DNA from: a bacterium
GTDB taxonomy: Bacteria; Armatimonadota; Chthonomonadetes; Chthonomonadales; Chthonomonadaceae
Direction of reading: 5' to 3'
Assembly: GCA_021777995.1 (NCBI GenBank)
Contig: JAJYCW010000001.1
Location: forward strand, 5,473-69,472
DNA length: 64,000 nucleotides
Shown: piece after piece, positions 8,883-53,675 of the stretch
Numbering within the stretch: the first letter of the stretch is position 1
How the letters are laid out: each line of letters starts with the position of its first letter
The notes under the pieces: model-generated
The model's database searches: none
What the model saw: the letters and a program-made list of their open reading frames with translations, nothing else
What the model was told of the DNA's origin: nothing
Made by a program: the position numbers and the translations under genes

Positions 8883-9985
8883 GTGCACGTCGAATGACAA
8901 CACCACGATCCCTATCGGCCAGGGTAATCAAGGTCGCACTTCAGGCGTGTGCGGCCGCGCTCTCGTTCCTCATTCTACTTGCTGGTACTCTCACCCTATT
9001 TGGTATTCGCGCAAAAACAGCACTTCCTGCCATAGCCGACGGTGCATTTGGAGGGTGGCAGTACGGGCATCTTTATGCGCTTTCTGAAACGGTCGTAGAA
9101 GCAGTACCGCTCATTTTAACGGGTCTGGGAGTTCTGGTTGCGTGGCAGGCAGGCATGTTCTCTATCGGTGGCGAAGGGCAGCTGCTTATTGGCGCACTTT
9201 CGGCGATGACAGTAGAGCACTTCATCGGCAACACACCAGCACCACTCATTACATTCCTAATGCTTGTCGCCTCAGTGGTGGGTGGCGCACTGTGGGGTGG
9301 AATAGCCGGCTGGCTGCGCACCACGCGAAACGTTCAGGAGGTGATTAGTACAATCATGCTGAACTACATAGCCCTCTACCTCGTGGGGGCGGCTGTACTC
9401 GGTCCCCTTCAAGAACCATCGCATAGCGGACCGGAGACAGCGCTTCTTCCAGATCCTGTCCTGTTTGCTCATATACTTCCTGCGGCCTGGACGGGTGGTA
9501 TAACCGCGCGCCTGCACACCGGAGTCATCATTGCACTGATTGCAGTTCCGTGTACAGCAGTTTGGATGTACAGAACACGGACAGGCTTCGCATTGCGATT
9601 AACGGGTCGCAATGCGGACGCGGCACGTACGGCTGGCTTTTCGGTGGACCGCGTGCGCCTAATAGCAATGGTTGTCTCTGGAGCATTATGTGGCCTGGCA
9701 GGCTCAGTGCAGCTGTTAGGCGTAAGTGCGCGTCTTGATCAACAGTTTTCACCTGGCTGGGGCTACAGCGCAATTCCCGTTGCCCTCATGGGCGGCTTAA
9801 CACCCGGCGGCACGCTGGTGTCCGCACTCTTTTTTGGTGCGCTAACGGCTGGCACAAACAGCGCAGAACGCACTGCAGGAGTACCCGCGGTGGTAGCTGA
9901 CGTTCTGCTTGCAGCATCCGTTATGGCTGTTGTCGCCATAAGAGCATGGCGTGGCAGGGCACAATTGGCTTCGGGGGGAGACTAA
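8879..9985 (+). CDS. ABC transporter permease (BMP/nucleoside system)
   Basis: Polytopic membrane protein. ATGA overlap with the ATPase gene. Typical branched-chain/ribose-type permease length. Confidence 0.85.
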   Translation: MSARRMTTPRSLSARVIKVALQACAAALSFLILLAGTLTLFGIRAKTALPAIADGAFGGWQYGHLYALSETVVEAVPLILTGLGVLVAWQAGMFSIGGEGQLLIGALSAMTVEHFIGNTPAPLITFLMLVASVVGGALWGGIAGWLRTTRNVQEVISTIMLNYIALYLVGAAVLGPLQEPSHSGPETALLPDPVLFAHILPAAWTGGITARLHTGVIIALIAVPCTAVWMYRTRTGFALRLTGRNADAARTAGFSVDRVRLIAMVVSGALCGLAGSVQLLGVSARLDQQFSPGWGYSAIPVALMGGLTPGGTLVSALFFGALTAGTNSAERTAGVPAVVADVLLAASVMAVVAIRAWRGRAQLASGGD

Positions 9986-27833: not shown

Positions 27834-29306
27834 CTATTTAGCCTTCTTTACAGACGCGACAAGGGTGGTTGCCGCGGCGCCCTTAAGCACAGGCATCGTT
27901 GATGCAAATTCAGGATCATTACTACCAATATCTCTCAACAGGCGAGCATTGGCGATGTAAAAATTATAAAGCGCATTTACCTGATTAACCTGAGCAGTAA
28001 CCAACTGTAGTCTGGCATTAATGGAGTCAAGGATATTGATCACCCCAAACTTTAACTCCCCTTCTGCGGCCTTCCAGTTCTGTTCGCCTGCTAATGCCGC
28101 CTTGTTCGCAGCATCCACCTGCTGCCGGGAAAGCTCTCGTGTGAGGTAGTCCTGTTCCACTGCAAGGCGTGCATTCTGTTCCAGCTGGTCTAGCGTGCGC
28201 TCCTGAATAGCAAGCTGGGCTTCCGCCGCTCGCACTGCCGCTTTGGAAGAGCCTCCATCAAACAACGGATAGGTGAAGGAGACCACAAATGCGCGCTGTT
28301 CTCCGGAGGTCGGCTGAAACTGATAACCTTCATCAACCGAGGCGCTAATACCAATGCCGGCCTGTAAGCGAGCTACTCTAAGCGCGTCTGTTTGCGCATT
28401 GATCAGCGACTGCTGCTGTTTAAGGTCTAGGCGGTTCTGAAATGCCTGCTGTACATAACTTTCAAGTCCACGGGGATCTGGAGTAGGGATTACCGGCGCA
28501 AGGTTGGGTGGTGCAAGGATCAATGGCTGCGAGGTAGAAACGCCCATTGCATTCTTCAATGTCGCGTCGTCAACCTCTGCGACGTTCTGTGCCTGAATGA
28601 GCGCTACCTGAGCGTTTGCGTAGTCGGATTCCGCCTGGTAAGGAGCGGTTTTTGCAGCATTTCCCACAGCCACCTGCTCGTTTATGGAGTCTAGCGTCTG
28701 CTTTGCCTGGTCGACACTAACCTGCTGTACCTGGATTAACTTCTGGTCGCGCAACAGAGTGAAATAATCCTGGGTCACCGCCAAAATAACGGATTGGCGC
28801 GTGTTCCCCAGGTTAAATTGACTCGCATCCAGGCTATTCCGTGCCTGTTGCAGGTTTGCCTCTCGCTTGCCTCCATCCCAAATCGTCTGGCGAAGAGTAA
28901 TCTGGTCGGTTACGTTTTCACCACTAAACGTGCCACCCACAGCGCCAGCGCCGCTTATTGGCTGAACGCTACTGGTGTACGTATAACCAGGCGTAATCTG
29001 CGGAAAGTACGGTGCTCGAGCCTGCACTACCTGAGCTCGACTAGCGTCGGTTCCCGCCTTTGCAATGGCAATGCTATTTTGCCGAAGCAAGGCAATTGCG
29101 ACTGCCTCATTAAGTGTTATAGGCTTAGTTAAATCATAGCTTTTTGCCGCGCCCTGTGTAGGAGTTTGCGGAAACCCATACCTAACCTGCGCCGGTGAAG
29201 GTGCACCATTGGTCCTATTGGTACCCTGTGCCCCTGCCTGAGCAGCTACTAAACCGAGGCTTATGGCCACCATTCCCACGCTGCCCGTCAACAGTCGTTT
29301 CGTCAT
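27834..29306 (-). CDS. TolC-family outer membrane efflux protein
   Basis: Signal peptide (MVAISLGLVAAQAGAQG). Two internally repeated coiled-coil/beta-barrel halves with a Q/A/L-rich heptad composition typical of OEP proteins. Confidence 0.88.
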   Translation of the reverse strand: MTKRLLTGSVGMVAISLGLVAAQAGAQGTNRTNGAPSPAQVRYGFPQTPTQGAAKSYDLTKPITLNEAVAIALLRQNSIAIAKAGTDASRAQVVQARAPYFPQITPGYTYTSSVQPISGAGAVGGTFSGENVTDQITLRQTIWDGGKREANLQQARNSLDASQFNLGNTRQSVILAVTQDYFTLLRDQKLIQVQQVSVDQAKQTLDSINEQVAVGNAAKTAPYQAESDYANAQVALIQAQNVAEVDDATLKNAMGVSTSQPLILAPPNLAPVIPTPDPRGLESYVQQAFQNRLDLKQQQSLINAQTDALRVARLQAGIGISASVDEGYQFQPTSGEQRAFVVSFTYPLFDGGSSKAAVRAAEAQLAIQERTLDQLEQNARLAVEQDYLTRELSRQQVDAANKAALAGEQNWKAAEGELKFGVINILDSINARLQLVTAQVNQVNALYNFYIANARLLRDIGSNDPEFASTMPVLKGAAATTLVASVKKAK

Positions 29307-38297: not shown

Positions 38298-38492
38298 CTA
38301 CTTTTTGCTACCACTAAACTGTCGACCAGATGGCGGTATTGGATTGGCCAGCGACGGAGCCTGGTTTACCTGCGGCGGTGCCTGTGGAGGAGCAGAACCG
38401 CCACCGCTGCAACCTGTACAGGCTAACATGAGACCTACACCTAGCGCTACCCCCACGAATTCAAGCGGTGTCAATCTGCGTATTGGTCGCAT
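38298..38492 (-). CDS. small putative lipoprotein (64 aa)
   Basis: The ATG at 38492 shares 1 nt with the upstream TAA (TAATG). Signal peptide [25 protein letters not shown], then a Gly/Pro/Gln-rich tail. Confidence 0.5.
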   Translation of the reverse strand: MRPIRRLTPLEFVGVALGVGLMLACTGCSGGGSAPPQAPPQVNQAPSLANPIPPSGRQFSGSKK

Positions 38493-39364
38493 TAGTTCTG
38501 TGGCCACCAGGTCACTTTGCTGTTTACGTAAGAGCCAATCTGCCCACACAGCATTTGTGGTAATCCGTAAGCTGGCCCAAGGTCAATGGTTGCATTGGGA
38601 TCAGCACAGTAGTCTGGCCAAAACGAACTGTTACTTGGCATCCCATATCGATGGGTACCAACGTTACCAAATTTGAACTGAACTTCCTTGGCGTGGCCAT
38701 CTGCGAAGACAACATTCCATTTTCCGTCATGACGAACGCCGCTCTGGCTATAGCCGCCATGGTAGGAATCTAGTACCCAATCCATGCCCATGGTTGGTCG
38801 GTATGTATCATAGCTGTCGCTGTAGACAAATGTGTCCGCGGGAGCTACAATACCTGCCATGGTCACTCCAGGCTGCCAGTGCTCGCCAGGAGCTGGATCA
38901 TCAACTTCTGCACCATGTAATCCGCCACCTGCGTATATTAGCGGGCCCCAGTTATATCCGTAATTGGTGTGAAAGTTCGGGTCGGACGGCTTTGGCATGA
39001 TGCCCTGCGCAAAAACACAGGAGTCAATGGTATCCCCCTGGCTATCACCCCCATCTGGACACTGAAGGATCTGTTCGTCCTTAAAATAGGGATAGTAGAG
39101 CGTGTACTCGGCATGAGAACAGTGGCCGTTAGCTCCATTATTGGTCCTCGCAAAGGTCTCGTCATAATCCTGTGTGTACATCATGACAGACAAACCTAGC
39201 TGCTTCATATTACTAAGGCAGCTCGTGCGACGCGCCATCTCCCGCGCCTGCGCAAATACAGGGAACAGAATGGCTGCTAAAATTGCGATAATTGCAATAA
39301 CGACGAGTAACTCGATGAGCGTAAACGCGTTGCGCTTGTTCATTATAATCCGGTTTGAGAACAT
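38492..39364 (-). CDS. DUF1559 (H-x9-DG) protein with a prepilin-type N-terminal cleavage/methylation domain
   Basis: [31 protein letters not shown]-terminus and a C-terminal [13 protein letters not shown] (H-x9-DG). Start taken at ATG 39364, preceded by GGGAGGA. ATG 39343 ([13 protein letters not shown]) is equally possible. Confidence 0.85.
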
Positions 39365-39586
39365 GTATTCCTCCCGATAGTGTACGGGATAATTCCGCAA
39401 TTCTGAAGTAACCTCCAGCGGCTTATCCTGAACGAGATTATGCATCGGCACTATTAAGGTCGTGTTATCATTTCGTTAATTCTCTGTTAACACACTTGCT
39501 GTTTTATTTGGTGTTGGACGCCATAACAAAAATGCTCGACATCTCTAAAAATAATGGAACAGTGTTGACGGTCATTTGCGTAATAA

Positions 39587-39603: not shown

Positions 39604-39675
39604 ATATTGTTGTTGCCAGTAACTTCAAATGATCGGTTGGTAATAACAGCAAGCAACCATTATAGGAGAGGTAAA

Positions 39676-40200
39676 ATGAGTAGAGGTAACAATACACCAG
39701 GTGCAGTAATGACAGTTCGTCCCGTTCCGTCTATGACGACGAGAACTCCCTGGAATGACATGGAAGCCCTTCGGCGACGAATGGATGACCTGTTCTCCTC
39801 TGTAACAGGGTACACGCCGGTTTCTCAGCTACTCAACACCAGCATCGATTCAGACATAACGCCGGACGTTTTTGAAACCGACACGGAGATGGTGTTTATT
39901 CTCCCCGTACCCGGCATTGATCCAAACGAGATTTCAGTAGAAACTACAGCAGACACTCTCACTATTAAGGGTGAGCGCAAACCTTTCTTCCAGAACGAGG
40001 GCGCGGTGCAGCATCGTCAGAGCTGGTGGAGTTCCCGCACCGGAACGTTCAGTCTGTCTTATACGCTTCCCGTGGAGATCAATACCGATAAGGTAATCGC
40101 GTCCTATAGGATGGGTGTGCTTGAACTACATCTTCCAAAAGCAGAATCTGTTAGGCCAAAAGCCGTGAAGGTCAGTATTGCTGAAGAGCACAAGGCATAG
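39676..40200 (+). CDS. Hsp20/alpha-crystallin family small heat-shock protein
   Basis: Start at ATG 39676, preceded by AGGAGAGG. Alpha-crystallin domain (DVFETDTEMVFILPVPG...TIKGER...GVLELHLPK). Confidence 0.9.
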   Translation: MSRGNNTPGAVMTVRPVPSMTTRTPWNDMEALRRRMDDLFSSVTGYTPVSQLLNTSIDSDITPDVFETDTEMVFILPVPGIDPNEISVETTADTLTIKGERKPFFQNEGAVQHRQSWWSSRTGTFSLSYTLPVEINTDKVIASYRMGVLELHLPKAESVRPKAVKVSIAEEHKA

Positions 40201-40822: not shown

Positions 40823-41248
40823 ATGATGAGCGATACTAAGTTTACCAAAACCGATGATGAGTGGCGATCGATCCTTACACCACAGCAATACAGAGTGTTG
40901 CGCCAGTCTGGCACAGAGCCTGCATTTTCAAACGAATACTGGAACAATCACGAAGACGGTACCTACTGCTGTGCAGGTTGTGGCACCGTTCTGTTTACCT
41001 CTGAGACGAAATATGACTCTGGATCCGGGTGGCCGAGCTTCTGGAATGCCGTAGATTCAAGTAAAATCTCCCTGGTGGAAGATCATTCTCATGGGATGAT
41101 ACGCGTAGAGGCTAAGTGCGCGGTATGTGGCGGGCATCTCGGACATCTGTTCGAAGACGGCCCAAACCCAACCGGCAAGCGCTACTGCATCAACTCTCTC
41201 TCGCTTCAGTTCAGCCCTGATACATCAAACATGGAAGGTGAAGAATAG
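40823..41248 (+). CDS. msrB: peptide-methionine (R)-S-oxide reductase
   Basis: Two CxxC zinc motifs (CAGCG, CAVCGG), GHLGHLFEDGP, and the catalytic RYCINS. Confidence 0.92.
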   Translation: MMSDTKFTKTDDEWRSILTPQQYRVLRQSGTEPAFSNEYWNNHEDGTYCCAGCGTVLFTSETKYDSGSGWPSFWNAVDSSKISLVEDHSHGMIRVEAKCAVCGGHLGHLFEDGPNPTGKRYCINSLSLQFSPDTSNMEGEE

Positions 41249-41251
41249 ACA

Positions 41252-42025
41252 ATGGCGTTCTGCGAACTTAAATACTTCAGCCCCGCACTTCAAAAGCATA
41301 TTGCCGCGAACGTCATTATCCCCGAAAACTTGCAGGTCAAGCCTTTTCCGGTACTCTACCTGCTGCATGGTCAATCCGACGATCACACGATCTGGATGCG
41401 GCGAACGTCAATAGAACGTTATGTTGACAACACGGGTCTTATGGTGGTAATGCCTGATACCGGTCGAGGCTGGTATTCCAATGCGGTGCACGGGCCCGCC
41501 TGGGAGACATCAATAGTTACGGATCTTGTAGACTTCATTGATGGTATCTTTCCAACACGCCCTAATGCGGGAGGAAGGGCGCTCGCTGGCCTCTCAATGG
41601 GTGGCTACGGTGCGGTGCATCTCGCGTTCAACCATCCAAACAGATTTTGCGCAGCCGTGAGCCATTCTGGTGCACTGGCGTTCTCCCATTTCGATCTTGA
41701 TGCAAATCCTGGTGCATGGTCGTCTGAAATGAAACTGATTCTTGGTGAAAAGTATATCGGCAGCAAATCCGACCTTTTTGCCCGTGCACAGAAGCTAATG
41801 TCCATTAAACGACGTCCGGCAATCAGGATTGATTGCGGGACCGAGGACTTTCTTATCGAACAAAATAGGCTGTTTCACACCCACCTTACTAACATTGACT
41901 ACCCGCACGAGTATGAAGAACATCCTGGTGCTCATACCTGGGAATACTGGGACAGACACGTTCAGGACAGCCTCATGTTCCTTCTCCCTATCCTCCAGCC
42001 AACACAGCCCACTGGAAGTAAGTAG
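41252..42025 (+). CDS. esterase-family alpha/beta hydrolase (esterase D / S-formylglutathione hydrolase-like)
   Basis: PVLYLLHG, the nucleophile elbow GLSMGGYGA, and a C-terminal HPGAHTW. Confidence 0.85.
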   Translation: MAFCELKYFSPALQKHIAANVIIPENLQVKPFPVLYLLHGQSDDHTIWMRRTSIERYVDNTGLMVVMPDTGRGWYSNAVHGPAWETSIVTDLVDFIDGIFPTRPNAGGRALAGLSMGGYGAVHLAFNHPNRFCAAVSHSGALAFSHFDLDANPGAWSSEMKLILGEKYIGSKSDLFARAQKLMSIKRRPAIRIDCGTEDFLIEQNRLFHTHLTNIDYPHEYEEHPGAHTWEYWDRHVQDSLMFLLPILQPTQPTGSK

Positions 42026-42227: not shown

Positions 42228-44336
42228 ATGGAAAATGCTTCCGACGTAGAACCACATTTAGACAGTGGTTCACAGCGCTTGATCAAGTCAGTGGTGCAAA
42301 TGTCGGGGCAGTCCACTCCCGGGCTTTACCACTGGCTGCTTGCTCTACTTTCACAGCACTCAGATCTTACCGAAGCGCTGACACCATATCTTCGGGCGCA
42401 GTCGCTTGCTCTGGAACTTCAAGGAAAACTGGGCCAGGGCAGAACTGGCGCGATTGTCTCCGTAACGGTCATGGAACACCGTGCATATCGCCAGGCGTTA
42501 GCCGAGGGGCGCGCGATGGCCACGGTTCAAGACCTGGCAGCAGCCATTCTAACTTCGGCAGGCTACCAACTACAGGCATTGCCTCAGAATGAATCAGTTG
42601 ACGCTGTAAGCACATCGGGCATTGAAACACTGAAGCGCTTGGGGCGGTGCCTTTCACTTGAGGCGCATGAACAACGCCTAACCCCCATAGTTGGCCGTGC
42701 GGATGAACTGCAGCTAGCATTAGAAACACTATGTCGGCAGACCAAACGAAACCCCGTTTTCATCGGTCCTGCAGGATGTGGCAAGACTGCAATAGTAGAG
42801 GGACTGGCGCAGAGAATCGCGTCGGGTGCCTGCCCTGCTGCGCTAAGGTCCGCGCAGGTGTGGTCAATTGATCCAACAGCCATTATGGCTGTAGCTCATC
42901 ATCAATCTGATTTTCATAAACTCGTTCAACAGCTAATTACTGAAGCCAGCCGGCCGGATATCATTCTGTTCATTGATGAGGTCCACCAGCTTATCGGTAT
43001 GGGTGGCGCGGCCGGGCAGTCCGATCTTTCCAGCCTCTTAAAGCCCGCTCTTGCTAGAGGTGATCTGGCCTGCATCGCTGCCACAACCGACGAGGAGTAC
43101 CGAAAGTTCATAGAGCCAGATGCTGCGCTGGAACGCAGGTTTCAGCCCATTCGCGTTCAAGCTCTAACTGCAGCCCAGACTTTACCCGTACTTGTAGAGC
43201 GATGCGCCTTGATTTGTAGAGGTACCGCCACGCGAGTGTCTCCTCAGGTAATCCAGCATTTGCTCGATCTTGCTGACCATCATATGCGAAATCGCCAATT
43301 TCCAGATAAGGCAATTGATTTATTAGAGCAGAGCATCGCTCATGTACTCGCTCTTAACCGCAGCGAGGTTACCGACCGAGATGTAGTGGAGGTTTTGCAG
43401 AGGATGGTGGGTATGCCGCTGGGCCTTGATGCCGGCCTCGACAGCCTTCGGTTAACTCTGCAATCAGAAAACATTCTGACGCACGAAGCTATTGTAAGCT
43501 TGATGCACCGCCTGAAGATTAGCCTTAGCGGGCTCGACATGCGCCCAGAACGTCCAAATGCCACGTTATTGTTAACAGGTGATTGTGCACACCGTGCTTC
43601 GCGCGTCGCGGAGATCATTGCGGAGAATCTTTTCGGTGCCGCGGACCGTGTAGTAACGTTAGATTTCGGGCGCATGGTGGAACCTCAGGACGTTACACTC
43701 TTACTGGGCGCACCACCCGGCTACGTTGGTTACAGTGAAGCACTCACCATACACCGGTTGTCTCAGATGCCCTGGTGCGTTCTTTACTGCCAAAATATTG
43801 ACATGTGCCACTACACAGTCCGCGATGTGCTGTTGCGCGGCATTAAATCGGGCTTTCTTACTGATGCACGGGGCAAAAAGCTCTATCTTAGCGACACAGT
43901 GTTGCTATTAACCGCGGAGTCAATAGGAGCAGAACCGCAATCCATTGGACTTCTAGGTAACGCTGCGCACAAGGAGAAAATTGCGCCAAGGCAGTTATTG
44001 GCCAGTGTCCTTGGGGATGATTTCGCCGCTCAAATGGACGATGTGTTTTACCAGGTACCTTCAGCGGAAGTAGAAACGAACACTGGAGCAATAGAGCGTA
44101 TGCTTCAAAATGTATCCCTACGCTGCACCATGCATGGAATTACTCTATCCTGGGATCACTCGTTCATCGCCTGGATCTTAGAAAAGCAACGGGTTGCGGC
44201 GCAACAGCGCGACTGGGAGCGGGTTGTAGAGGAGTCGCTCGCCGAAATCCTCAGTCCATACATTGATGGACAGGATGATTGCTGCATCACGATTACATGC
44301 CGGGATGGCGAACCAATCGCTACCCGGCAGTCGTAA
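42228..44336 (+). CDS. ClpA/ClpB/ClpC-like AAA+ protein with intact D1 and degenerate D2
   Basis: Clp_N-like N-terminus. D1 has Walker A GPAGCGKT, Walker B ILFIDEVH and [13 protein letters not shown]2 aligns with Clp D2 (GAPPGYVGY is retained), but Walker A is TGDCAHRAS and Walker B is [10 protein letters not shown]. Confidence 0.85.
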
Positions 44337-44362: not shown

Positions 44363-45838
44363 CTAACCTACCCCCCTCATAAACCTTGATACCTCTTTCT
44401 CGTAGGTATGAAATGGATTTTTGAGGTCAAGTTGCCGATTACGCTCAATATATACCGCATCCCAGTCGATGACGTAGCGCGTAGTCGGACTATTGATGAG
44501 CTGGGAAATGATCTGACCGCGCCCCAGTGCCCTGGTGTTACACGGTGGCATACTCAGTGCCTCTTCAATTTCTCGGTCAGTCGTTAGCCTGCCGAGTGCG
44601 CCACTATTTTCCAGACCATAGCTCAGGCCCTGTGCTGGATGAATGTTGTGATACTCAAGATCAAGGCTCTGCATAACGTCATCGTTCCACTGTGTGCCGG
44701 TTTCTGCCATATACTGTTGGTACAGTACGTACTTGGCCGACCAGTCTAACTTGTCGCTCGTAGAGAGCGGGTCGCGTTCCAGGTCATCCAGAATGCGTTC
44801 CCACTGAAGGAGGACGTTGTCCGTTTGGGCATCCTTGCGATGTAGGTATTTTTTGGCCGCATCAAGATACCGACGTTGAAGGTCGACTGCTCTAATAGTT
44901 TTGCCGCTCTTCAATTTCACAATCCATTTAAACGAGTTATCGCGAGAAACAGCTCTCAAAACGTTAAGTGGTTCATCCAGTTCAACGTCTGGTGGTGCAC
45001 ACCCCTCCTCAATGAGATCCAAAACAAGGCTGGTAGTGCCCACCTTCAAAAGCGTGGCATATTCACTCATGTTACTTTCGCCAAATAGCACATGCAATCG
45101 ATGCAGGTTAGTATACGAATAATACGAGTCCCATTTAGGATTGATAATTGCACGGTTAAACCTAACCCTAGAGCTCACCGTCTTTACAATATGATCTGCT
45201 CGCTGGGAGAGTTGGAAATCTACGGATTGGTCAATCTCCACCCCGTAAAAGTTAGAGACCCACACATAGTCCACTTCATGATCGCCCATCGTCATGATGT
45301 TGTTTTTGCTATTTGGCCGCACCAGCTTGTGACCGCCAACACGGCCGATACCGGCAAAAATCTGACGGGTTACAAGAAACGGCAGTAGATCGGTGATTGC
45401 CTCAGAAAATAGCCGATCCTCAATTTGAACAAGGTAGTTTTCATGACATCCAAACGTATGGCCGCCAAAATGGTCGATGCTGTTATTATGGAAACTAACC
45501 GCTTCGGTAAGCCCAAGGTCCTCAATAAGGCGCGACAGCATGATGCGCCCGGCTCTATCATGTTTGACGAGATCAATAAGGTCGGTACATTCCGCTGTCG
45601 CGTATTCCTCGTGGCTGCCAACAGCATCTACATACAATCTGCCGCCGTTACGCAGAAATCCGCCGGCTCGGGCTGGCTCAAATGCATAATCACGCGCGTG
45701 CAGATCAATGACGCCTAGCTTTTTGGTATAGAAGGCCTCATCCTTTACAAGCTCGACAACTTCCTCTGGTGAGCCCACGGAAGGATCTCTTACCATACAT
45801 CCGAACTCTGTTTCAATGCCGAAAATGCGTTTATCCAT
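44363..45838 (-). CDS. pafA: PafA-like Pup/UBact ligase (carboxylate-amine ligase fold)
   Basis: N-terminus MDKRIFGIETEFG (PafA-like ETEFG). 491 aa. A paralogue of the gene at 47694..49205. Last gene of the proteasome locus, the same position pafA holds relative to prcBA in actinobacteria. Confidence 0.8.
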   Translation of the reverse strand: MDKRIFGIETEFGCMVRDPSVGSPEEVVELVKDEAFYTKKLGVIDLHARDYAFEPARAGGFLRNGGRLYVDAVGSHEEYATAECTDLIDLVKHDRAGRIMLSRLIEDLGLTEAVSFHNNSIDHFGGHTFGCHENYLVQIEDRLFSEAITDLLPFLVTRQIFAGIGRVGGHKLVRPNSKNNIMTMGDHEVDYVWVSNFYGVEIDQSVDFQLSQRADHIVKTVSSRVRFNRAIINPKWDSYYSYTNLHRLHVLFGESNMSEYATLLKVGTTSLVLDLIEEGCAPPDVELDEPLNVLRAVSRDNSFKWIVKLKSGKTIRAVDLQRRYLDAAKKYLHRKDAQTDNVLLQWERILDDLERDPLSTSDKLDWSAKYVLYQQYMAETGTQWNDDVMQSLDLEYHNIHPAQGLSYGLENSGALGRLTTDREIEEALSMPPCNTRALGRGQIISQLINSPTTRYVIDWDAVYIERNRQLDLKNPFHTYEKEVSRFMRGVG

Positions 45839-45862
45839 GGGCTGTGTTCCAGGTGAAAACCA

Positions 45863-46660
45863 TTAATAGAGGTCCGAAATAACTGATCCTAACACGTCAC
45901 CAGCAAGCAGATGAAAGCGTGCATCCTGTTTATCGCGGCGCTGCAGAAACCCTACCTCCAGCACACCGGACTTCAGTTCCTCTTGCAAGAACACCCGGTC
46001 TGCATCCGCCTCGTCCACCACTTTCAGAGGTGTATCCTGATCCCGCTCGTCCTCATTGGGAGCGCTAATCTGATCTCTGGCGCCAGCAACCCACGCCCTT
46101 AGCGCTCGACGAATTGCCTCATCACGTGACAGGGTTGAATCGGGCTCGCCTAGCACCTGCAACATTCTATCCTCGGCACTCTGCGTACCACCAATGGCGG
46201 CTATGCCAGTGTGCTGCCTGTACTCTCCATCGTAGTTCAATGTAAAAAAGCAATCGCCAGCCACCGTGCGACCCAGTTCTGCAAAAAGCCCCCGAATTAC
46301 CACGGGCACATACATTTGATCGCCGAAGGCCTTCTTAAGTGCAGGGCTAAGTGCAAATCCTACCAGTCGGTGGAGCGAGACGTCATCAGGACTGCGTTCA
46401 AATCCTTCCTGGTGAGCGGTTTGGATGGCGGAAAGGCGCACGTTTTCAATGTCGGACTGCCTTCCAATCGCGCTAAACATCTGGCGGTCGTAAATCTCAT
46501 AAACTTTGCGCTGCGTACGCCGTACGGTTACGAGTAGCAGGCCCTCTTCACAGCAAATACCTACTACAGGGCTACCGGACCGCAGGCCGGCTTCCACATA
46601 GTCCTTGCGATGCCCAATCGCCTCATTAATGTCAAATGGCGTATGCATATGTAGTTGCAA
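45863..46660 (-). CDS. prcA: 20S proteasome alpha subunit
   Basis: Ntn-hydrolase-fold protein without an N-terminal catalytic Thr (GSPVVGICCEEGLLLV...YEIYDR). Lies directly downstream of the beta subunit. Confidence 0.88.
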   Translation of the reverse strand: MQLHMHTPFDINEAIGHRKDYVEAGLRSGSPVVGICCEEGLLLVTVRRTQRKVYEIYDRQMFSAIGRQSDIENVRLSAIQTAHQEGFERSPDDVSLHRLVGFALSPALKKAFGDQMYVPVVIRGLFAELGRTVAGDCFFTLNYDGEYRQHTGIAAIGGTQSAEDRMLQVLGEPDSTLSRDEAIRRALRAWVAGARDQISAPNEDERDQDTPLKVVDEADADRVFLQEELKSGVLEVGFLQRRDKQDARFHLLAGDVLGSVISDLY

Positions 46661-46684
46661 CCCTTTGTTTCAAGATTCTAGCGA

Positions 46685-47485
46685 TCACCGTGAAATCGAC
46701 TTGTCCAGCTGCTCGATAATAGCTTTCAAAGTTTCATCGGGCACCTCTTCAATTCCGTTGCAGGTGATGGTTCTAGCAAGCGGCATCACCTTTGCCCAAC
46801 CACCAGTAGCGGCATCCAGATCAGCGGCGATGTCGAGCAGTAACAGCGCCTGTTTTAGGGCTTCGTCCCGTGACATTTCATGAAAGGGCTTAACTGTTTT
46901 AACGATGTAGTCAAAAACACCGCGAATCTGCATCGAACCACTGCCGGCTGCACCGAACTCAGTGGATTCGAAGCGTGCACCCATTCCATCATAGAAGAAT
47001 ATACGGCCTTCGTTACTCTCTTTATCGAAGGTAGCTAATATGGGAATAAAGCCACCGATGCCCTGAAGCGCGTCGGGAATACCGGCTTTTACTACCCTGG
47101 CGAGTTCGGTAAGCTTTCCTTCAAGGCTCATGGGCTGTAGGTAGGTTCGCTCAAAGAGTTTAAATGATGTGCGCAGGTATTTCACAACATCCATTGCACG
47201 GGCAAATGAGCCGCTTATTGCCAGCAGTGTGGTATCGTCAATAGCTAGCACCTTGTCGGCACGGTCGTACATCACTGCGAAGTTAGCAGTCGCGCGGCGG
47301 TCGCCTACGGCAATGACGCCGTCCTTAAACTTTACTGCGATTACAGTTGTGCCATGCGTCTCAATCGATCCTGCACCTGCGTGTGAATCCGCGGGACGTA
47401 AGCTGCCCGCTTCCCTGGTGAACGGATGCCCGCTCTGTTCCAGTAACTTCCAAAGACTACCAGCAGTATCTGTGGTTGATAGCAT
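46685..47485 (-). CDS. prcB: 20S proteasome beta subunit with propeptide
   Basis: A 45-aa propeptide ending ...IETHG, followed by TTVIAVKFKDGV (catalytic Thr46 after Gly45). Typical beta-subunit core (GDRR, GSG). Confidence 0.9.
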   Translation of the reverse strand: MLSTTDTAGSLWKLLEQSGHPFTREAGSLRPADSHAGAGSIETHGTTVIAVKFKDGVIAVGDRRATANFAVMYDRADKVLAIDDTTLLAISGSFARAMDVVKYLRTSFKLFERTYLQPMSLEGKLTELARVVKAGIPDALQGIGGFIPILATFDKESNEGRIFFYDGMGARFESTEFGAAGSGSMQIRGVFDYIVKTVKPFHEMSRDEALKQALLLLDIAADLDAATGGWAKVMPLARTITCNGIEEVPDETLKAIIEQLDKSISR

Positions 47486-47487
47486 GT

Positions 47488-47676
47488 TTACTGTCCACTT
47501 CGTTGTCGATACCGACGAGCAGCGTCAGGATCAACGCGTCGCATGCGCTTTAGAAGGTCACTGGTGTCAGGCCGTTTCACATCTGGCTCAGATGGTCCAC
47601 CACCATCTCCATCTTTGCGCACCGGGCTTATGGGCGCCACCGGCGCCTGTTTTCGTTCTTCGCCATTTATTATCAT
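47488..47676 (-). CDS. Pup-like (UBact-type) small protein modifier, 62 aa
   Basis: Sits between the dop-like gene and prcB, exactly where pup lies. GGGAGAGAG Shine-Dalgarno. Gly/Pro-rich N-terminal half. C-terminus DLLKRMRRVDPDAARRYRQRSGQ, compared with mycobacterial Pup as I recall it: DDLLDEID...AYVQKGGQ. Confidence 0.8.
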   Translation of the reverse strand: MIINGEERKQAPVAPISPVRKDGDGGGPSEPDVKRPDTSDLLKRMRRVDPDAARRYRQRSGQ

Positions 47677-47693
47677 TGCTCTCTCCCGTTCTG

Positions 47694-49205
47694 TCAGTTC
47701 TGCTGACCATTGCGCCGTATCAAATTCACTACCTCATCAAGAGTTTGGGCAGACGCAAACTCTTCGTTAAGGATCCTCGCGTTCTCTTCCACCAGAGGAT
47801 TCATGTCGAACAGCAGATCCTCGCCATTGTGGTGGAACACAATACCGTTCCACCCGGTTCGTTTAACGGCATGACCAAACCGTTTAATTATCAGCCCTCG
47901 AAGGTAAGCTCGCGTATCAGCAGGTGCGCAGCTCACAGCGGCGTCCACTCTGCTCTCGGTTACTAGCCGGCGCATTGCCCCAGCTTCCTCAAGACCGTAA
48001 TAAAGCCCCTCGCTGCGATCGATATTGTGATAAGCCAGGTCAAGACTCTGAATATGACTGTCATTCCATGGTAAGCCCTCTTCTTGACGAAACTCATCTA
48101 GAAGAAGATACTTGGCGACCCAGTCCAAACGATCTGCTAATTTGGTAAAGTCCGTTTCCAACAAGTCAAGAGCCGTTCTCCATTCATGAAGTACCCAATC
48201 CGTTTCAGCATCTGCGCCCGCATAGCGATGTTCTGCAGCAACAAGATATGCGCGCTGAATATCTATTGCCCTTAGAGATGTACCACCATCCTGTTCGTAT
48301 GCGAGCTTAAACGAGAGATCACGGCTAATATTGCGCGATGCGCGAACTGGGTCACGCAACCTTACCGGCGATGTCCAACCGTCCTCTAATAGACGGAGAA
48401 CGAGTACTGTAGCACCAACCTTTAGAGCGGTTGCAACCTCGCTCATGTTCGCGTCACCGCAAATAACGTGCAGCCGGCGATACTTGCTTGGAGTGGCATG
48501 AGGCTCATCACGAGTGTTTACCAACGGCCGGTTATGCAGCGTGTCCACACTAGCCTCTACAGCCATAAAGTCCGCGCGCTGGGATAGTTGAAATCGATCA
48601 GCATCTGGTCCAGAAACGTTCTCCACTCCAGCTTTACCTGCACCAGCGTAAACACACCGAGAGGCAAAGAATGGAAGTAGCGTGCCTATCAGTGCAGTGG
48701 TATCTACGTGCCGCTGCATGAGATAGCCCTCATGGGTGCCGTAGCTGGATCCATGGAAATCCGTATTATTCTTATAAATTGTTACCGCCCGGCCAATTGC
48801 TGCGGACCTCCGCTTAGCCGCATCCAGTACCACACGCTCGCCTGCTCGGTCGTGGGCAACGAGATCAAAAAGATTTCGACATTCAGGCGTAGCATATTCA
48901 GGATGGCCGTGATCGTTATAAAAGCGGGCTCCGTTCACTAGAATGCGATCACTTCGTTCCTCTTCGTGAGACATCGTGTGGTGAGAACCGGTATCAAATA
49001 CGGCGTCGTCAGGGTTTGTATTGAGGGACTTGACTGTAAAGCCTCGCATATCGCGGCGAGCATCTTCACCGCGATAGTTCCACCCTTTTACCGCTTCGCC
49101 TGCATGGCCCCGCACCACTGCCATCGACTCGCTAACCCAGTCTACAGCGGAAAGGCCATCGACAACAATACCGTATTCGGTTTCGATTCCAAATAGTCTA
49201 TCCAT
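47694..49205 (-). CDS. dop: Dop-like deamidase/depupylase
   Basis: N-terminus MDRLFGIETEYGI (Dop-like E.EYGI). 503 aa. Located between the AAA ATPase gene and the modifier gene, as in actinobacterial loci. Confidence 0.8.
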   Translation of the reverse strand: MDRLFGIETEYGIVVDGLSAVDWVSESMAVVRGHAGEAVKGWNYRGEDARRDMRGFTVKSLNTNPDDAVFDTGSHHTMSHEEERSDRILVNGARFYNDHGHPEYATPECRNLFDLVAHDRAGERVVLDAAKRRSAAIGRAVTIYKNNTDFHGSSYGTHEGYLMQRHVDTTALIGTLLPFFASRCVYAGAGKAGVENVSGPDADRFQLSQRADFMAVEASVDTLHNRPLVNTRDEPHATPSKYRRLHVICGDANMSEVATALKVGATVLVLRLLEDGWTSPVRLRDPVRASRNISRDLSFKLAYEQDGGTSLRAIDIQRAYLVAAEHRYAGADAETDWVLHEWRTALDLLETDFTKLADRLDWVAKYLLLDEFRQEEGLPWNDSHIQSLDLAYHNIDRSEGLYYGLEEAGAMRRLVTESRVDAAVSCAPADTRAYLRGLIIKRFGHAVKRTGWNGIVFHHNGEDLLFDMNPLVEENARILNEEFASAQTLDEVVNLIRRNGQQN

Positions 49206-49211
49206 AGTGGC

Positions 49212-50993
49212 CTAAATGATGTTTCTCGACGTCTCACTCACTGCACGGCGCGCTTTAACAGGTTTCACAGTCGCAACATTGTCTGGCTCATAATCAAGAA
49301 GTTTCAACCAATCCTCCTGAGAATCACCCTTCGGGAAGATCTCGTTTTCCTTATACTCAACTCGAACGGCAGTCTGTAGGTCCTCAATGCTGATTCCCTC
49401 TTCATCGGACTTCAGTTCAATCGACCTTTTGATGGCGAAATCCTTTGCGCGTTCCACCACAGATTTGATGAGAGCACCACTAATTAGGTCTTTCCAGTAG
49501 AGTTTTTCCGTGCCACCGCTACGCATAAACACCTCTAGAAACTCGGTCTCTTGAACCCTGCGGTATGTGAACTCGGTGATGGCATCTAACATTTCATCCA
49601 TTACCGAAGTACAGTCGCCCCGATGCTTCTTGATGAGGTTGTGGTCAATAGGTACATCACTAAGGTATATCTTGAAAATATCACGCGTCGCACGTCGATC
49701 TGGGCGCACTACCTTCACTTTGCGATCGATACGCTCGGGACGTAAAATTGCCGGGTCAATATAATCGGGCCGGTTGGACGTAAGCATGACGACCACATTG
49801 TCGAGCGAGACCAACCCATCCATTTCTGCACAGAATTGAGGAACTAAAGTGTTAGAGATGTTAAGATATCTCCCACTACTTCGCGTCCTTAACAGCGACT
49901 CCGCCTCATCAATGAAGATAAACACCAACCGCCCTTCGCGTGCTTTTTCACGTGCCTGATTAAATATGTCCCGCACCTGGCGCTCGGACTCACCAAGCCA
50001 CATATTGAGAATCTTTGGTCCATTGATATACATGAAATATTCTGTGACGTCTTTGCCGGTGCGTTCGCGATATTCCTGCGTAAGGTTATACGCGGTTGCT
50101 TTACCAATCAGCGTCTTGCCACAACCAGGAGGTCCAAACAAAAGGATCCCCTTTAACGGCCTTTTTCCGAAACGCGCGAAGAGTTCGGGGTGAAGCAGCG
50201 GCAGCTCAATAGCGTCGCGTATAACAGAGATAGCCTCGTCTTGCCCTCCGATCTTACTCCAAGGGAGAACGGGTACCTCTTCAAGATAATAATCCGACGC
50301 TTCCTTAGCGGGAAAATACTCCAAGGCTACCTTGAAGTTTGGTTCCATACGCACTTCGGATCCAACCTTCAGTAATTGTGCCTTTATCGCCTCGCCGCGA
50401 TAGACTACTCTAGACTGAGTGCCTTGGGAGTCGAGCGCCACCCGCAACCTACCATCCTCGAGCACCTCAACAATCTTGACTATAGGTCCACCTTCTGCAA
50501 AACCGAGGTCACCAATCACGGCGAATGCTTCGTTAACCTTTACCTGAGTACCCGCCTGCAGTTCCACGTTTTCCATCCGGGGATCAACGTTAGCAATATA
50601 TTCCTGTTCCCCAAGGGCGATACGCACGGTCTGTGGCTTCTCCTCAGGTTCGGCCAGCAGCGACGACCGCCGGCGCGTTTTAGGTTTGGGAGGATCGGCT
50701 TTTCCTAAATAAACCGCAATCTTGTTAGCTGGCGCTGTGAGTTTGTTGTACGCGTCCTCAAACTCCGCGATCACTTTACGCGCCTCATCCATCATGGCTT
50801 CGTCAGTTTCGATCTGTTCGCGCAGGGTCAGCAGATAGCCCAAACGGGCGTCATTGCGCGGGGTCATCCGTATGACTTCGTCTAAAATCCAGAGAGCCCG
50901 AAGCTGCAACTCTGGTTGACTTTCGGACTGCGATGCATTTAGTTCGCCAGCATCATCATCGTTGGAAGAGCGGGTGTCTCTGTCTCGTTTCAT
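49212..50993 (-). CDS. proteasome-associated AAA+ ATPase (ARC/Mpa-like)
   Basis: Acidic predicted coiled coil near the N-terminus. An OB-like middle region (RIALGEQEYIANV..., VKIVEVLEDGRLRV). Walker A GPPGCGKT and Walker B FIFIDEAE. First gene of the locus. Confidence 0.9.
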   Translation of the reverse strand: MKRDRDTRSSNDDDAGELNASQSESQPELQLRALWILDEVIRMTPRNDARLGYLLTLREQIETDEAMMDEARKVIAEFEDAYNKLTAPANKIAVYLGKADPPKPKTRRRSSLLAEPEEKPQTVRIALGEQEYIANVDPRMENVELQAGTQVKVNEAFAVIGDLGFAEGGPIVKIVEVLEDGRLRVALDSQGTQSRVVYRGEAIKAQLLKVGSEVRMEPNFKVALEYFPAKEASDYYLEEVPVLPWSKIGGQDEAISVIRDAIELPLLHPELFARFGKRPLKGILLFGPPGCGKTLIGKATAYNLTQEYRERTGKDVTEYFMYINGPKILNMWLGESERQVRDIFNQAREKAREGRLVFIFIDEAESLLRTRSSGRYLNISNTLVPQFCAEMDGLVSLDNVVVMLTSNRPDYIDPAILRPERIDRKVKVVRPDRRATRDIFKIYLSDVPIDHNLIKKHRGDCTSVMDEMLDAITEFTYRRVQETEFLEVFMRSGGTEKLYWKDLISGALIKSVVERAKDFAIKRSIELKSDEEGISIEDLQTAVRVEYKENEIFPKGDSQEDWLKLLDYEPDNVATVKPVKARRAVSETSRNII

Positions 50994-51215
50994 GAGAATC
51001 TCCTTTCGGACGCACGGGGAACTAACTCATTGTAGCGCAGGAAGCAGGATGATTCCAATGAAATCTCCCAATCTAACGCAATTTCAATTCACTTCAACAA
51101 GGTCTAACTACAACGACTAACATATGGTTTAGCTAGTCAACTACATAAAGGCAGCCAATTCGTAAGAGGGCGCCATCCTATCCATTATACGCTACCGTGG
51201 GCACTGAAGTTTCTT

Positions 51216-51245
51216 GGCAGGAGGTGCCATAATGATCCTCCTGCC
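51216..51245 (-). terminator. hairpin downstream of the glycosidase-like gene (no U tract)
   Basis: GGCAGGAGG-N12-CCTCCTGCC, a 9-bp stem 19 nt after the stop at 51264. Confidence 0.4.
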
Positions 51246-51263
51246 TCCTGTCTGCGTGGTTGA

Positions 51264-53675
51264 TTATTCTCGCCGTATCCTCAACACCCAATCCCCATTT
51301 GTCGGGGCGGTAAAGTGGTGCACCATGCCTCCGGTCAGGGTCTCGGTAGAGGCTACAATTCCTGTTTCTGGCGATACCCAGTCTACATGTAGCTGCCCTG
51401 TTGCCTCCAGAAGGTCGAGGTCGACTGTACCACCCTCCTTCATGTAAACAAGGTAACTAAAGCCAGGATTGGCAAGTACCCACATATTGCTCGTGCTGCT
51501 ACTCTTAATCAGATCGTTATGAGGTGCGAGCCGCGTGTAATCCATGCTGTTAAGTATCTGCCCCGCAACTGCAGTCTGCTGAGCGATTGGCGAGGTTGAG
51601 ATATCGGTACCCCAAAGCGAGGGCGATGCAGCCACATAGTAACCGCCCAGTGCTAGAGCCTGCCACAGCCTATGTCGGGCACTCGTTACTGTAATCTGGG
51701 CGGTTGGATCTTCTACGGTTACAGGCTTGCCAAATGCCACGCTCGCCGGGATAGTCATGAGATCCTGAGTAGTTACCGTAATGGAGTTGAGAGGTGCTAC
51801 ATCTTGGGCTGCAGGCGCGCTTTGGGCAAGCATTATAGCCTTTTGAGCGGCAGCCTGGGCGGCAGCAGTACTGGGCCACAATTCCATACCTGCAGGGCTC
51901 TGAATGTAAGCCGAACTAGACGCAGAAACATCAGCACTACTACTTATAACGATGGGTGGAGCAGCAGATGCAATAGCCGGCAGATCGCGTGTCAACACAT
52001 GCCCGTCCGGATCCTGTTTTTTTGTGAGAGCCAACAATGCAGTGATGAGCGCTGCCCCGCGGGGCGAATTCGCAACAGAGGCGTCGCTCGCGTCGAGGAC
52101 GTTCCAACATACATTCATGCTGCTATATCGCGCAAGGATGTAACTCCAAAGTCTCTCAATCTGTTGATCGGTAAACGTGTCCAACAGGTCCTTATTTAAT
52201 ACGCCTATGCCTAGATCCGGTACGATTCCAGCCTTCGAACATAGTTGTATGCGACGATCCAGGTAATGAAAAAACTCCGGATTAAGCTTATCAGGATCAT
52301 AGTTAAGGAAGGGGGCACCACCTTCATTTACCTCTGTATGCCCAGTGAAGGATGGAACGTCGATCACCCAATTGTTTACTATTCGATTGAATCCCATTTT
52401 GGCTAACTGCTTGATCTGCTGTCGCGCCTCTTCTAGCTTCATCAAGCTAGGCGACGCGGTAGACTGTCCTGGTGCAGCCTGAAACGAGCAGACGTTGAGT
52501 GGCGCTATTACAGGTAGGAACGACGAGCCATCAGTAAATGCAAAACGAGCAATGGCAGAGTTTTCCGTAGTGACAAAACCTGGGTTAGCTGTTGGTGGTG
52601 AAACGCATCGGAACTCCCCACTTACGCCGTTTAACCCGGCGTCGGCGGAGTGCGTAGTCCAATGCCAGGTACCAGTCATGTTTGGCGCAATCGCCAACCG
52701 CCACTTTGTACCCCCTCGCCAGTAGCACGGTACATCCACGGTGGAACCGTCCGGACGCTCCATTTCAGCAATTGCGCTAAGATCAACGTACGGATTGCCT
52801 TTATCCGTGCTGGCAATGAGATCGACTATGTATGGATGGTAGAGGCTTACCCGCGGACGTGGTAGCTGGACAGTGTTCCCCTGCCCCAGTGGTATCGATC
52901 CAACAGCACTGGTAAACGTTAGATCGGATGGATAATCTACGGTGAGGAGTTTGCTGTCATCAAGGTCAATCGCGTAACCGTGACGCGTATTGCTGTACAG
53001 TATGAGGTAGTACGCATGCCCAGCCGAATCGCTTGCAATGGCGTGTAGCTCCTGCCAGCCCAGGGCTTGCCAGCCGTTGGCAGGGTTCACGTTAACCTCT
53101 ACTAGAGGTGACACCTCAAGTTTGCCAAGGTGAACAGTTTCATCTGCTTTACCAATAGCTAAATGCCCCGTAAGGTCCGGAAGCGTACCTCCCTGCCGGG
53201 TCCAATCAGCAAATGTAAAACTACCACCAGAGTATTTTAGCGGTGGTTGTATCGCAGACTTCGGCAGAGCAGTCCCCTGCGTAAGTTGCGCGGGATCGAA
53301 TTCGTAGTTACCTTGGAAATCGTAACTTGTGATCTGATTGCTACTATAGTCGTAGATCCAGCTAAAAAACGAGTTACCCTGGTTGTTAAGGTAGCACCAC
53401 ACCACATCAAAAGTATCGCCGCTTTTGGCAAGAAACCAGACGAGATGACTGGCATACCCTGCAGGACCTTGCTGCGAATAGAGATACGTGAGCTTGAATT
53501 AACGCTCCTCCCGCAGGTTAAAGGAGCGCCTAATCATCGTGCCGTCGGTCCCATTCCAAGCAATGGAATAGGGCCCGCTTTCTCCATGCAGAGAGTTTTC
53601 AGCATTCGCTGTGGAGCCTGATACAGCGAGAAGTACAACAAAAACAGCAGCAACTACACACCGCAATAATCTCAT
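51264..53675 (-). pseudogene. secreted DUF5060-type beta-sandwich / glycoside-hydrolase-like protein, interrupted by an in-frame TAA
   Basis: ATG 53675 encodes a signal peptide (MRLLRCVVAAVFVVLLAVSGSTANA). TAA at 53499..53501 is in the same frame as the 713-aa ORF 51264..53405. The 93 nt between them have no stop and read FKLTYLYSQQGPAGYASHLVWFLAKSGDTFD. The segment NPYVDL...DVPCYWRGGTKWRLAIAPNMTGTWHW is DUF5060-like. Confidence 0.6.

Follow-up and report, generated by a model that had tools for sequence, protein, structure and literature searches.

What is known of tag-dependent proteasomal degradation in bacteria comes almost entirely from Actinobacteria, chiefly from Mycobacterium tuberculosis, where the tag is Pup. 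UBact loci carry the same logic into several diderm phyla; the name was reportedly given by Lehmann, Udasin, Livneh and Ciechanover in 2017 (BBRC 483:946) to loci of Gram-negative phyla, and the abstract of that paper is said to list Armatimonadetes among them. Here we analysed 64,000 nucleotides (the window) from contig JAJYCW010000001.1 of assembly GCA_021777995.1, which contain a block of six co-oriented genes. In order, these genes encode an AAA ATPase, a Dop-like enzyme, a 62-aa modifier, the beta and alpha subunits of a 20S proteasome and a second protein of the Pup_ligase fold. We put at roughly 80% the probability that together they make up a complete UBact-proteasome system, which would be the non-actinobacterial equivalent of the Pup-proteasome system.

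The modifier scored 82.2 bits against PF20513 (UBact, cut-off 27.8) and 83.4 bits against NCBIfam NF033388 (cut-off 35). The Pfam Pup model (PF05639) did not match it even at E<=10, and its C-terminus reads SGQ rather than GG[QE]. By these profile matches, the modifier is a member of the UBact family. The relatives search took one genome per species and gave 556 relatives, of which the best 80 entered the locus comparison. The first-pass annotation had taken the 62-aa ORF for a modifier, and a conserved counterpart was found at the same position in 78 of the 80 loci, as an ORF of 59-69 aa between the Dop-like gene and prcB. The C-terminal half is highly conserved (..RPDTxxLLxRMxRVDPxxAxRYRQR[ST]G[EQ]), and all 77 complete orthologues end in RYRQR[ST]G[EQ]: RSGE in 32, RTGE in 25 and RSGQ, the end of the window's own tag, in 20. 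When the window's sequence is included, the last residue is Glu in 57 and Gln in 21 of 78 complete sequences, and both ends are found inside Chthonomonadaceae. By analogy with Pup, the C-terminal Gln of the window's UBact implies deamidation before ligation. Its last 30 residues carry a net charge of +6 (+4 to +8 across the orthologues), and the N-termini of the ATPases contain strongly acidic stretches. Note that in one Armatimonadota metagenome-assembled genome (MAG; locus L077) a second, weak UBact-like ORF (9733-9876, 39% identity) lies directly 3' of the UBact gene and may be a tandem duplicate of it.

The order ATPase-Dop-UBact-PrcB-PrcA-ligase, on one strand, recurs in essentially every long-enough locus among the 80, and is shared by Armatimonadota, Poribacteria, Acetothermia/Bipolaricaulia and Latescibacterota. 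Since the synonymous sites were saturated, dN/dS was not computable and we give pN and pS instead. Compared with the nearest relative, non-synonymous differences affect 3-9% of the sites and synonymous differences 75-87% in all six genes, and even the 62-codon UBact ORF shows this pattern (pN 0.054, pS 0.75); in the table of these values, the 'PafA' row of locus L005 is a spurious paralogue match on a truncated contig. Thus, strong purifying selection acts on each of the six genes, and because of this pattern and of the recurrent order and orientation, the arrangement is not due to chance. Judged from its sequence, the locus is evidently functional, a clean and compact example of its kind. In many Chthonomonadales genomes, about 0.4-2.5 kb of additional DNA separates prcA from the ligase gene, or the ATPase gene from the Dop gene (L007, L008, L010-L013, L034, L035 and others); the window has the compact form. 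A 78% identical homologue of the ligase, named 'Pup-ligase protein', is encoded in the complete genome of Chthonomonas calidirosea, a thermophile in culture, and the front half of the locus occurs on Chthonomonas MAG contigs.

The ATPase matched the Pfam domains AAA, Prot_ATP_ID_OB_N and Prot_ATP_ID_OB_C and aligned with residues 120-589 of M. tuberculosis Mpa at 317-328 bits. It begins with an acidic N-terminus and a predicted helical region, which are followed by two OB domains, an AAA module and a beta-grasp region at the C-terminus. The motifs of Walker A (GPPGCGKT), Walker B (IFIDEAES) and the pore loop (W-L-G) are intact. In each of the 64 full-length orthologues the chain closes with x-[IV]-[IVLM] after a basic stretch, and never with GQYL; one other ending, HLI, belongs to a truncated match outside the 64. 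The GQYL or penultimate-Tyr motif is a feature of Mpa, Bpa and the eukaryotic Rpt subunits, and not of the UBact-locus ATPases (L005-L084). The beta subunit scored 99 bits against Pfam Proteasome and 146 bits against TIGR03690 (20S_bact_beta), and matched PrcB of Rhodococcus and M. tuberculosis in the PDB at E 3e-27. The processing site that had been predicted at Gly45/Thr46 reads HG|TTVIAV and is conserved in the orthologues, and the mature chain contains Thr1, Asp17 and Lys33. The alpha subunit gave 22.4 bits against Pfam Proteasome, a score equal to the cut-off, 67 bits (E 1.5e-18) against TIGR03691 (20S_bact_alpha), below the cut-off of 139, and E 2e-10 with PrcA of Rhodococcus and M. tuberculosis in the PDB.

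An alignment was made of 80 Dop-like orthologues, 58 ligase-like orthologues and two references, Acidothermus Dop (4b0r) and Corynebacterium PafA (4b0t), whose sequences were rebuilt from PDB alignments. In Acidothermus Dop numbering, both paralogues of the window keep E8 and E10 (GhExE), R90, Y92, the catalytic D94, H97, E99 and E104, as well as D146, H155, E156, R205, D207, R221, N225, R239 and H241. A lack of the conserved ATP/Mg-binding residues, which would have spoken against the first-pass annotation, was thus seen in neither enzyme. These residues are retained in essentially all 80 Dop-like and 58 ligase-like orthologues, the sole variable position being E156, where 25 of the 80 Dop-like sequences have Asp; the N-terminal motif could not be read in 16 truncated ligase calls. 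The product of the second gene is, by sequence, clearly Dop-like. Its best model was Dop (TIGR03688, 442.3 bits, compared to 355 for the PafA model), and it matched residues 1-466 of Acidothermus Dop 4b0r at E 3e-105. It has NDHGHPEY around the catalytic Asp98 (the DH[GA]HPEY motif), 84 residues from the GhExE motif to R94, the Dop-loop Trp (W42) and the alpha-loop Thr (T222); at 20 positions that discriminate Dop from PafA, 8 are in the Dop state and 2 in the PafA state. Its AlphaFold2 model has a pLDDT of 88.3. In Dop-Pup structures, the Dop-loop Trp stacks on R90 and the alpha-loop Thr hydrogen-bonds the terminal residue of the tag (PMC8599861).

The second paralogue, whose gene closes the operon, matched Pup_ligase at 441 bits, and its best NCBIfam model was PafA (324.4 bits, compared to 299 for the Dop model). 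It has no Dop-loop (56 residues, compared to 84 in the Dop-like paralogue). The segment after its catalytic Asp is DAVGSHEEYATAE, with a 2-residue insertion that reads DAVGSH where PafA has DVGSH. At the 20 discriminating positions (Hecht et al. 2020, Table 1), it shows the PafA state at 8 and the Dop state at 3, and matches neither at the others; its PafA-state residues include F61, A80, A82, H216, S222, S223 and D458. The protein also carries T217V, T218R and R227K (Acidothermus Dop numbering; V225, R226 and K235 in its own), and INPKWDSYY replaces the INTRDEPHA segment. The INPKWDSYY/K235 version occurs without exception in 71 Armatimonadota sequences and, across phyla, in 35 of the 58 orthologues, while the Poribacteria/Latescibacterota-type orthologues keep TRDEP and lack the insertion after the catalytic Asp. 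We infer the ligase role from the signature residues, the missing Dop-specific elements and the need of a conjugation system for a ligase, no other candidate being conserved in the locus. The earlier label of 'PafA-like ligase' thus stands as a reasonable description of the signature residues and of the absent Dop-loop, but orthology to PafA was not established by trees, phmmer or fold.

From these components we infer every biochemical step, the paralogue that ligates and the route from tagging to degradation, by homology with the M. tuberculosis pathway. UBact would be made as a 62-aa, probably disordered protein with a C-terminal Gln. The Dop-like enzyme would deamidate this Gln to Glu, and would probably also strip UBact from proteins. 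The second paralogue would then use ATP to phosphorylate the gamma-carboxylate of the UBact Glu and join it to lysine side chains of the targets. The hexameric AAA ATPase would recognise the tag, thread it and unfold the substrate, which the 20S particle of alpha and beta subunits would degrade. The basic half of the tag, the x-[IV]-[IV] tail of the ATPase and the remodelled beta7/alpha-loop segment of the ligase suggest that the recognition interfaces differ from those of the Pup systems.

The window belongs to a non-actinobacterial host. The first-pass annotation had argued this from a TolC-type outer-membrane protein and a DUF1559 protein in the same window, and both were borne out by profile matches (OEP; DUF1559 + N_methyl). 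The closest loci are those of Chthonomonadaceae MAGs, at 86-88% identity, followed by other Chthonomonadales (59-71%), other Armatimonadota (about 50-54%) and Poribacteria (about 49%), and further by Acetothermia/Bipolaricaulia and one Latescibacterota MAG; no placement within Actinobacteria was seen. In the closest MAG synteny extends to the flanks (PdxS, a DUF5060/apiosidase-like protein, a ClpA/B-like ATPase and an esterase), whose products are 80-97% identical. Moreover, the locus is present in multi-megabase Chthonomonadaceae chromosomes, and the Dop-like protein has an exact match on a contig of MAG GCA_027352125.1 and in ENA and Logan assemblies (longest contig about 98.8 kb). G+C is even across the window, at 0.48-0.56. 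Because of the nearest relatives, the syntenic flanks, the even G+C and the host-type genes, and because NCBI taxonomy makes Chthonomonadaceae a family of Armatimonadota, we assign the operon to the chromosome of a soil/water bacterium of this family and regard contamination or mis-assembly as excluded.

An origin of the locus as an actinobacterial Pup-proteasome fragment, through mis-assembly, bin contamination or very recent horizontal transfer, would fit the resemblance of its gene content and order to the actinobacterial mpa-dop-pup-prcB-prcA cluster, and NCBI taxonomy does put Armatimonadota and Actinomycetota in one kingdom, Bacillati. This origin is nevertheless close to inconceivable: the tag is UBact and not Pup, G+C is uniform, the flanks are conserved in another Chthonomonadaceae MAG, the locus sits in large Chthonomonadaceae chromosomes and in the genome of the cultured C. 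calidirosea, and no actinobacterial record was found among the best 80 of the 556 relatives. We rejected it on the relatives search, the syntenic flanks and the missing Pup match. Other observations do weigh against a UBact-proteasome system that works as we propose. The mechanism rests wholly on homology, and no biochemical evidence for any UBact system was found in open-access papers and preprints. Both proteasome subunits score below the NCBIfam equivalog cut-offs, as do the ATPase with its best NCBIfam model (TIGR03689 pup_AAA, 440 bits, cut-off 504.75), the Dop-like enzyme (442.3 bits, cut-off 492.3) and, by far, the putative ligase (TIGR03686, 324.4 bits, cut-off 551.3). The alpha subunit is very divergent. 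To dock on the alpha ring of the 20S particle, Mpa uses the GQYL at its C-terminus, in which the Tyr is penultimate (PMC8755798), and the window's ATPase, which ends in SRNII, lacks this motif. The same components could thus operate with no delivery to the proteasome: UBact tags would have a mainly regulatory or protective purpose, the ATPase would either fail to dock on the 20S particle by its C-terminus or act alone as an unfoldase, and the proteasome would be fed otherwise. The divergent alpha subunit and the loss of the main Mpa docking determinant in 64 of 64 full-length orthologues would fit, and in Corynebacterium pupylation can exist without a proteasome. However, ATPase, tag, enzymes and both 20S genes are kept in one co-oriented block in at least four phyla, the beta active site is intact, and the conserved hydrophobic x-[IV]-[IV] end after its basic linker looks like an alternative docking tail, so that we consider a system uncoupled from the proteasome unlikely.

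The remaining points concern the putative ligase. Its Lys235 stands where PafA has an essential Arg (R193 in M. smegmatis, R207 in C. glutamicum) whose Ala mutant is inactive, and V225-R226 replaces the alpha-loop Thr-Thr pair conserved in PafA and Dop. It is slightly nearer Dop than PafA in phmmer (225 bits with Dop structures, 198 with PafA) and in a Foldseek comparison of its AlphaFold2 model (pLDDT 87.8; TM 0.79-0.80 with Dop, 0.71-0.77 with PafA), and AlphaFold2 did not predict a PafA-type alpha-loop helix in it. Note that the only helix in its modelled alpha-loop (214-229) is 3 residues long, beside a short strand and coil, at a pLDDT of about 70-86, and that the models of both paralogues show similar short elements there, at moderate confidence, with no long helix in either, so that they do not tell a ligase-like helix from a Dop-like loop. 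The trees do not place it with PafA. A first neighbour-joining (NJ) tree with only two actinobacterial references gave an independent duplication in 184 of 200 replicates, on which we do not rely: in a wider tree of 142 taxa, for which 150 representatives were added of a superfamily that is very large outside Actinobacteria (5171 clusters at 50% identity with E<=1e-3 to the window's ligase), the two locus paralogues grouped together in 43% of the replicates and the ligase with PafA in 38%. Maximum likelihood (three backbones, 20 taxa, 360 sites, a home-made BLOSUM62-derived model with gamma, topologies within clades fixed) gave lnL -11858.8 for PafA orthology and -11850.3 for a lineage-specific duplication, a difference of 8.5 units that was not significant by RELL (0.21 and 0.79). 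Co-evolution with a shared and very different tag could also draw the two paralogues together. The roles might therefore not follow the Dop/PafA split: this protein could be a second hydrolase or a ligase of another carboxylate, or the Dop-like enzyme could do both ligation and removal, and NCBI calls both paralogues 'PafA2 family'. Yet the protein keeps every catalytic residue common to PafA and Dop, lacks both the Dop-loop and the Thr that clamps the terminal residue of the tag in Dop, carries a PafA-like insertion behind the catalytic Asp, and shows PafA-state residues at F54, S67, A72, A74, H188, S194, S195 and D439. Conjugation, moreover, needs a ligase, and the locus conserves no other candidate. 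Overall similarity is a poor guide to activity here because twenty substitutions suffice to turn Dop into a ligase (Hecht et al., PMC7947786). A different division of roles is thus improbable, even more so than a system without proteasomal delivery, and we favour the assignment of deamidation to the Dop-like enzyme and ligation to its paralogue. Whether UBact is a sister system rather than a transferred copy of Pup, with an enzyme pair that its own duplication of a Dop-like ancestor produced or re-specialised, is a tentative idea that we rather doubt. If it were true, the Dop-loop would have been lost in parallel and the whole recognition code rebuilt: the tag would have reversed its charge, the ATPase tail would have no penultimate Tyr, and in the ligase Lys and new Arg residues would stand for the essential Arg and the Thr-Thr pair; the same chemistry would have been wired into a degradation pathway twice.

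All six minus-strand ORFs were present where the first-pass annotation had placed them, with gaps of 6, 17, 2, 24 and 24 nt in agreement with its spacing of 2-24 nt. The exception is the start of the alpha gene: its strand and stop end stood, but the TTG at 46660 is most likely not the start codon. The ATG at 46648 (MHTPFD...) is where the orthologue N-termini begin (M-x-x-P-[FY]-D), an independent gene call also gave 261 aa, and an AAAGGG Shine-Dalgarno-like box abuts the TTG; from these features the ATG is the most likely start, and the beta-alpha gap would therefore be 36 nt. The UBact gene has a Shine-Dalgarno-like GGGAGAG 5 nt 5' of its ATG, and the ATPase gene an AAAGGAG 7 nt 5' of its own, after an intergenic region of 270 nt that probably contains the operon promoter and ribosome-binding site. 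One sigma-70-like match (TTGGAA-18-TACAAT, 51058-51029) lies upstream of the ATPase gene; it is weak evidence because promoter-like sites were no commoner than in shuffled sequences, and the promoter and terminator scan gave nothing else above background.

Features of the locus and of the rest of the window (positions are those of the window)
Feature	Position	Strand	Details
Mpa/ARC-like proteasomal AAA+ ATPase	49212..50993	-	593 aa; C-terminal end ...SRNII
Dop-like deamidase/de-conjugase (putative) with Dop-loop	47694..49205	-	503 aa; Pup_ligase 522 bits
UBact modifier	47488..47676	-	62 aa; C-terminal end ...RRYRQRSGQ
20S proteasome beta subunit	46685..47485	-	266 aa, including 45-residue propeptide
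20S proteasome alpha subunit	45863..46648	-	261 aa from ATG at 46648
Second Pup_ligase-fold paralogue, putative UBact-protein ligase	44363..45838	-	491 aa; without Dop-loop
Upstream intergenic region	50994..51263	-	270 nt; candidate operon promoter and ribosome-binding site
OEP/TolC family outer-membrane efflux protein	27834-29306		
Ribosomal proteins L10 and L7/L12	31405-32507		
DUF1559 + N_methyl pilin-like protein	38492-39451		N-terminal methylation motif
HSP20	39607-40200		
MsrB/SelR	40823-41248		
Esterase	41252-42025		
ClpA/ClpB-like protein	42228-44336	+	two AAA modules
DUF5060 protein	51264-53405	-	713 aa

The gene of the ClpA/ClpB-like protein converges on the ligase gene, and 26 nt separate the two stops. 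Its first AAA module has a normal Walker A and Walker B, and the second looks degenerate (LYCQNID). We rejected this protein as a component of the system; it is common only to the closest relative. The HSP20, MsrB/SelR and esterase genes, known from the gene table of the identical contig, are stress or proteostasis genes beyond the locus. The DUF5060 protein, encoded upstream of the operon, also has apiosidase-like catalytic and collagen-binding-like domains; it had no NCBIfam match and is syntenic in the two closest relatives.

For annotation, the locus is ordinary. The databases recognise every gene, UBact has curated Pfam and NCBIfam models, and in Chthonomonas and other Armatimonadota these genes already have names from NCBI and JGI. 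A specialist would find the locus no surprise. Both paralogues (orthologue rows P0172, P0179, P0225, P0285, P0303 and P0331) are called 'proteasome accessory factor PafA2 family protein' by NCBI, which uses 'depupylase/deamidase Dop' only occasionally, while the JGI names are 'proteasome accessory factor A', 'PafA2' or 'Pup amidohydrolase'. Because both paralogues get the same NCBI name, automatic annotation does not separate the two enzyme roles. The earlier statement that UBact systems have been predicted but not characterised biochemically agrees with the open-access literature, in which 'UBact' occurs only in passing mentions and reference lists and reviews of pupylation do not discuss UBact or non-actinobacterial systems. 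The locus is of value as an intact, compact example, and a cultivable relative has a close homologue of its ligase; with this homologue and the Chthonomonas contigs that carry the front half, the proteins are open to direct production and assay. The three interface differences provide hypotheses on how tag recognition and proteasome docking could be rebuilt with the chemistry fixed, and could yield an orthogonal tagging system for proximity labelling, which now relies on PafA and Pup.

Finally, we compared the locus with the known systems. Dop/PafA homologues in Armatimonadetes have been mentioned before, and the outgroup proteins of Planctomycetes are single-copy (Hecht et al., PMC7947786). 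The carboxylate-amine ligase homologues found outside Actinobacteria share the fold, but here two specialised paralogues stand together with a tag and a proteasome. With the UBact loci there is no difference at the family level, and the window adds one more species-level instance: its tag is above both curated cut-offs, ends in R-[ST]-G-[EQ] and lies between the Dop-like gene and prcB, in the same company (an Mpa-like ATPase, prcA and a second Pup_ligase-fold gene) and in a non-actinobacterial diderm host. The basic tag, the x-[IV]-[IV] tail of the ATPase and the R227K/INPKWDSYY of the Armatimonadota/Acetothermia-type ligase may or may not have been described previously. With the actinobacterial Pup system (mpa-dop-pup-prcB-prcA ... 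pafA-pafB-pafC in M. tuberculosis) the locus shares the enzyme folds and catalytic residues, one paralogue with a Dop-loop, a small tag that ends in Gln or Glu (both occur, as do GGQ and GGE in Pup), an ATPase with double OB and AAA domains, and the beta propeptide and Thr1. The first-pass comparison with the actinobacterial gene order holds from the ATPase to prcA, but not beyond: here the ligase gene follows directly after prcA, with no pafBC in the locus. The two tags, UBact here and Pup of M. tuberculosis, presumably resemble each other in DLL... and RxYxQ[KR]xG[QE]. They belong to different families, however, with SGQ rather than GGQ at the end here, and Pup is strongly acidic, about -9 over the C-terminal 30 residues in M. 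tuberculosis, where the UBact tags have +4 to +8. The Dop, PafA and Mpa models are matched below their equivalog cut-offs, the ATPase is without GQYL, and the ligase differs from its actinobacterial counterparts at residues that are invariant in both PafA and Dop.

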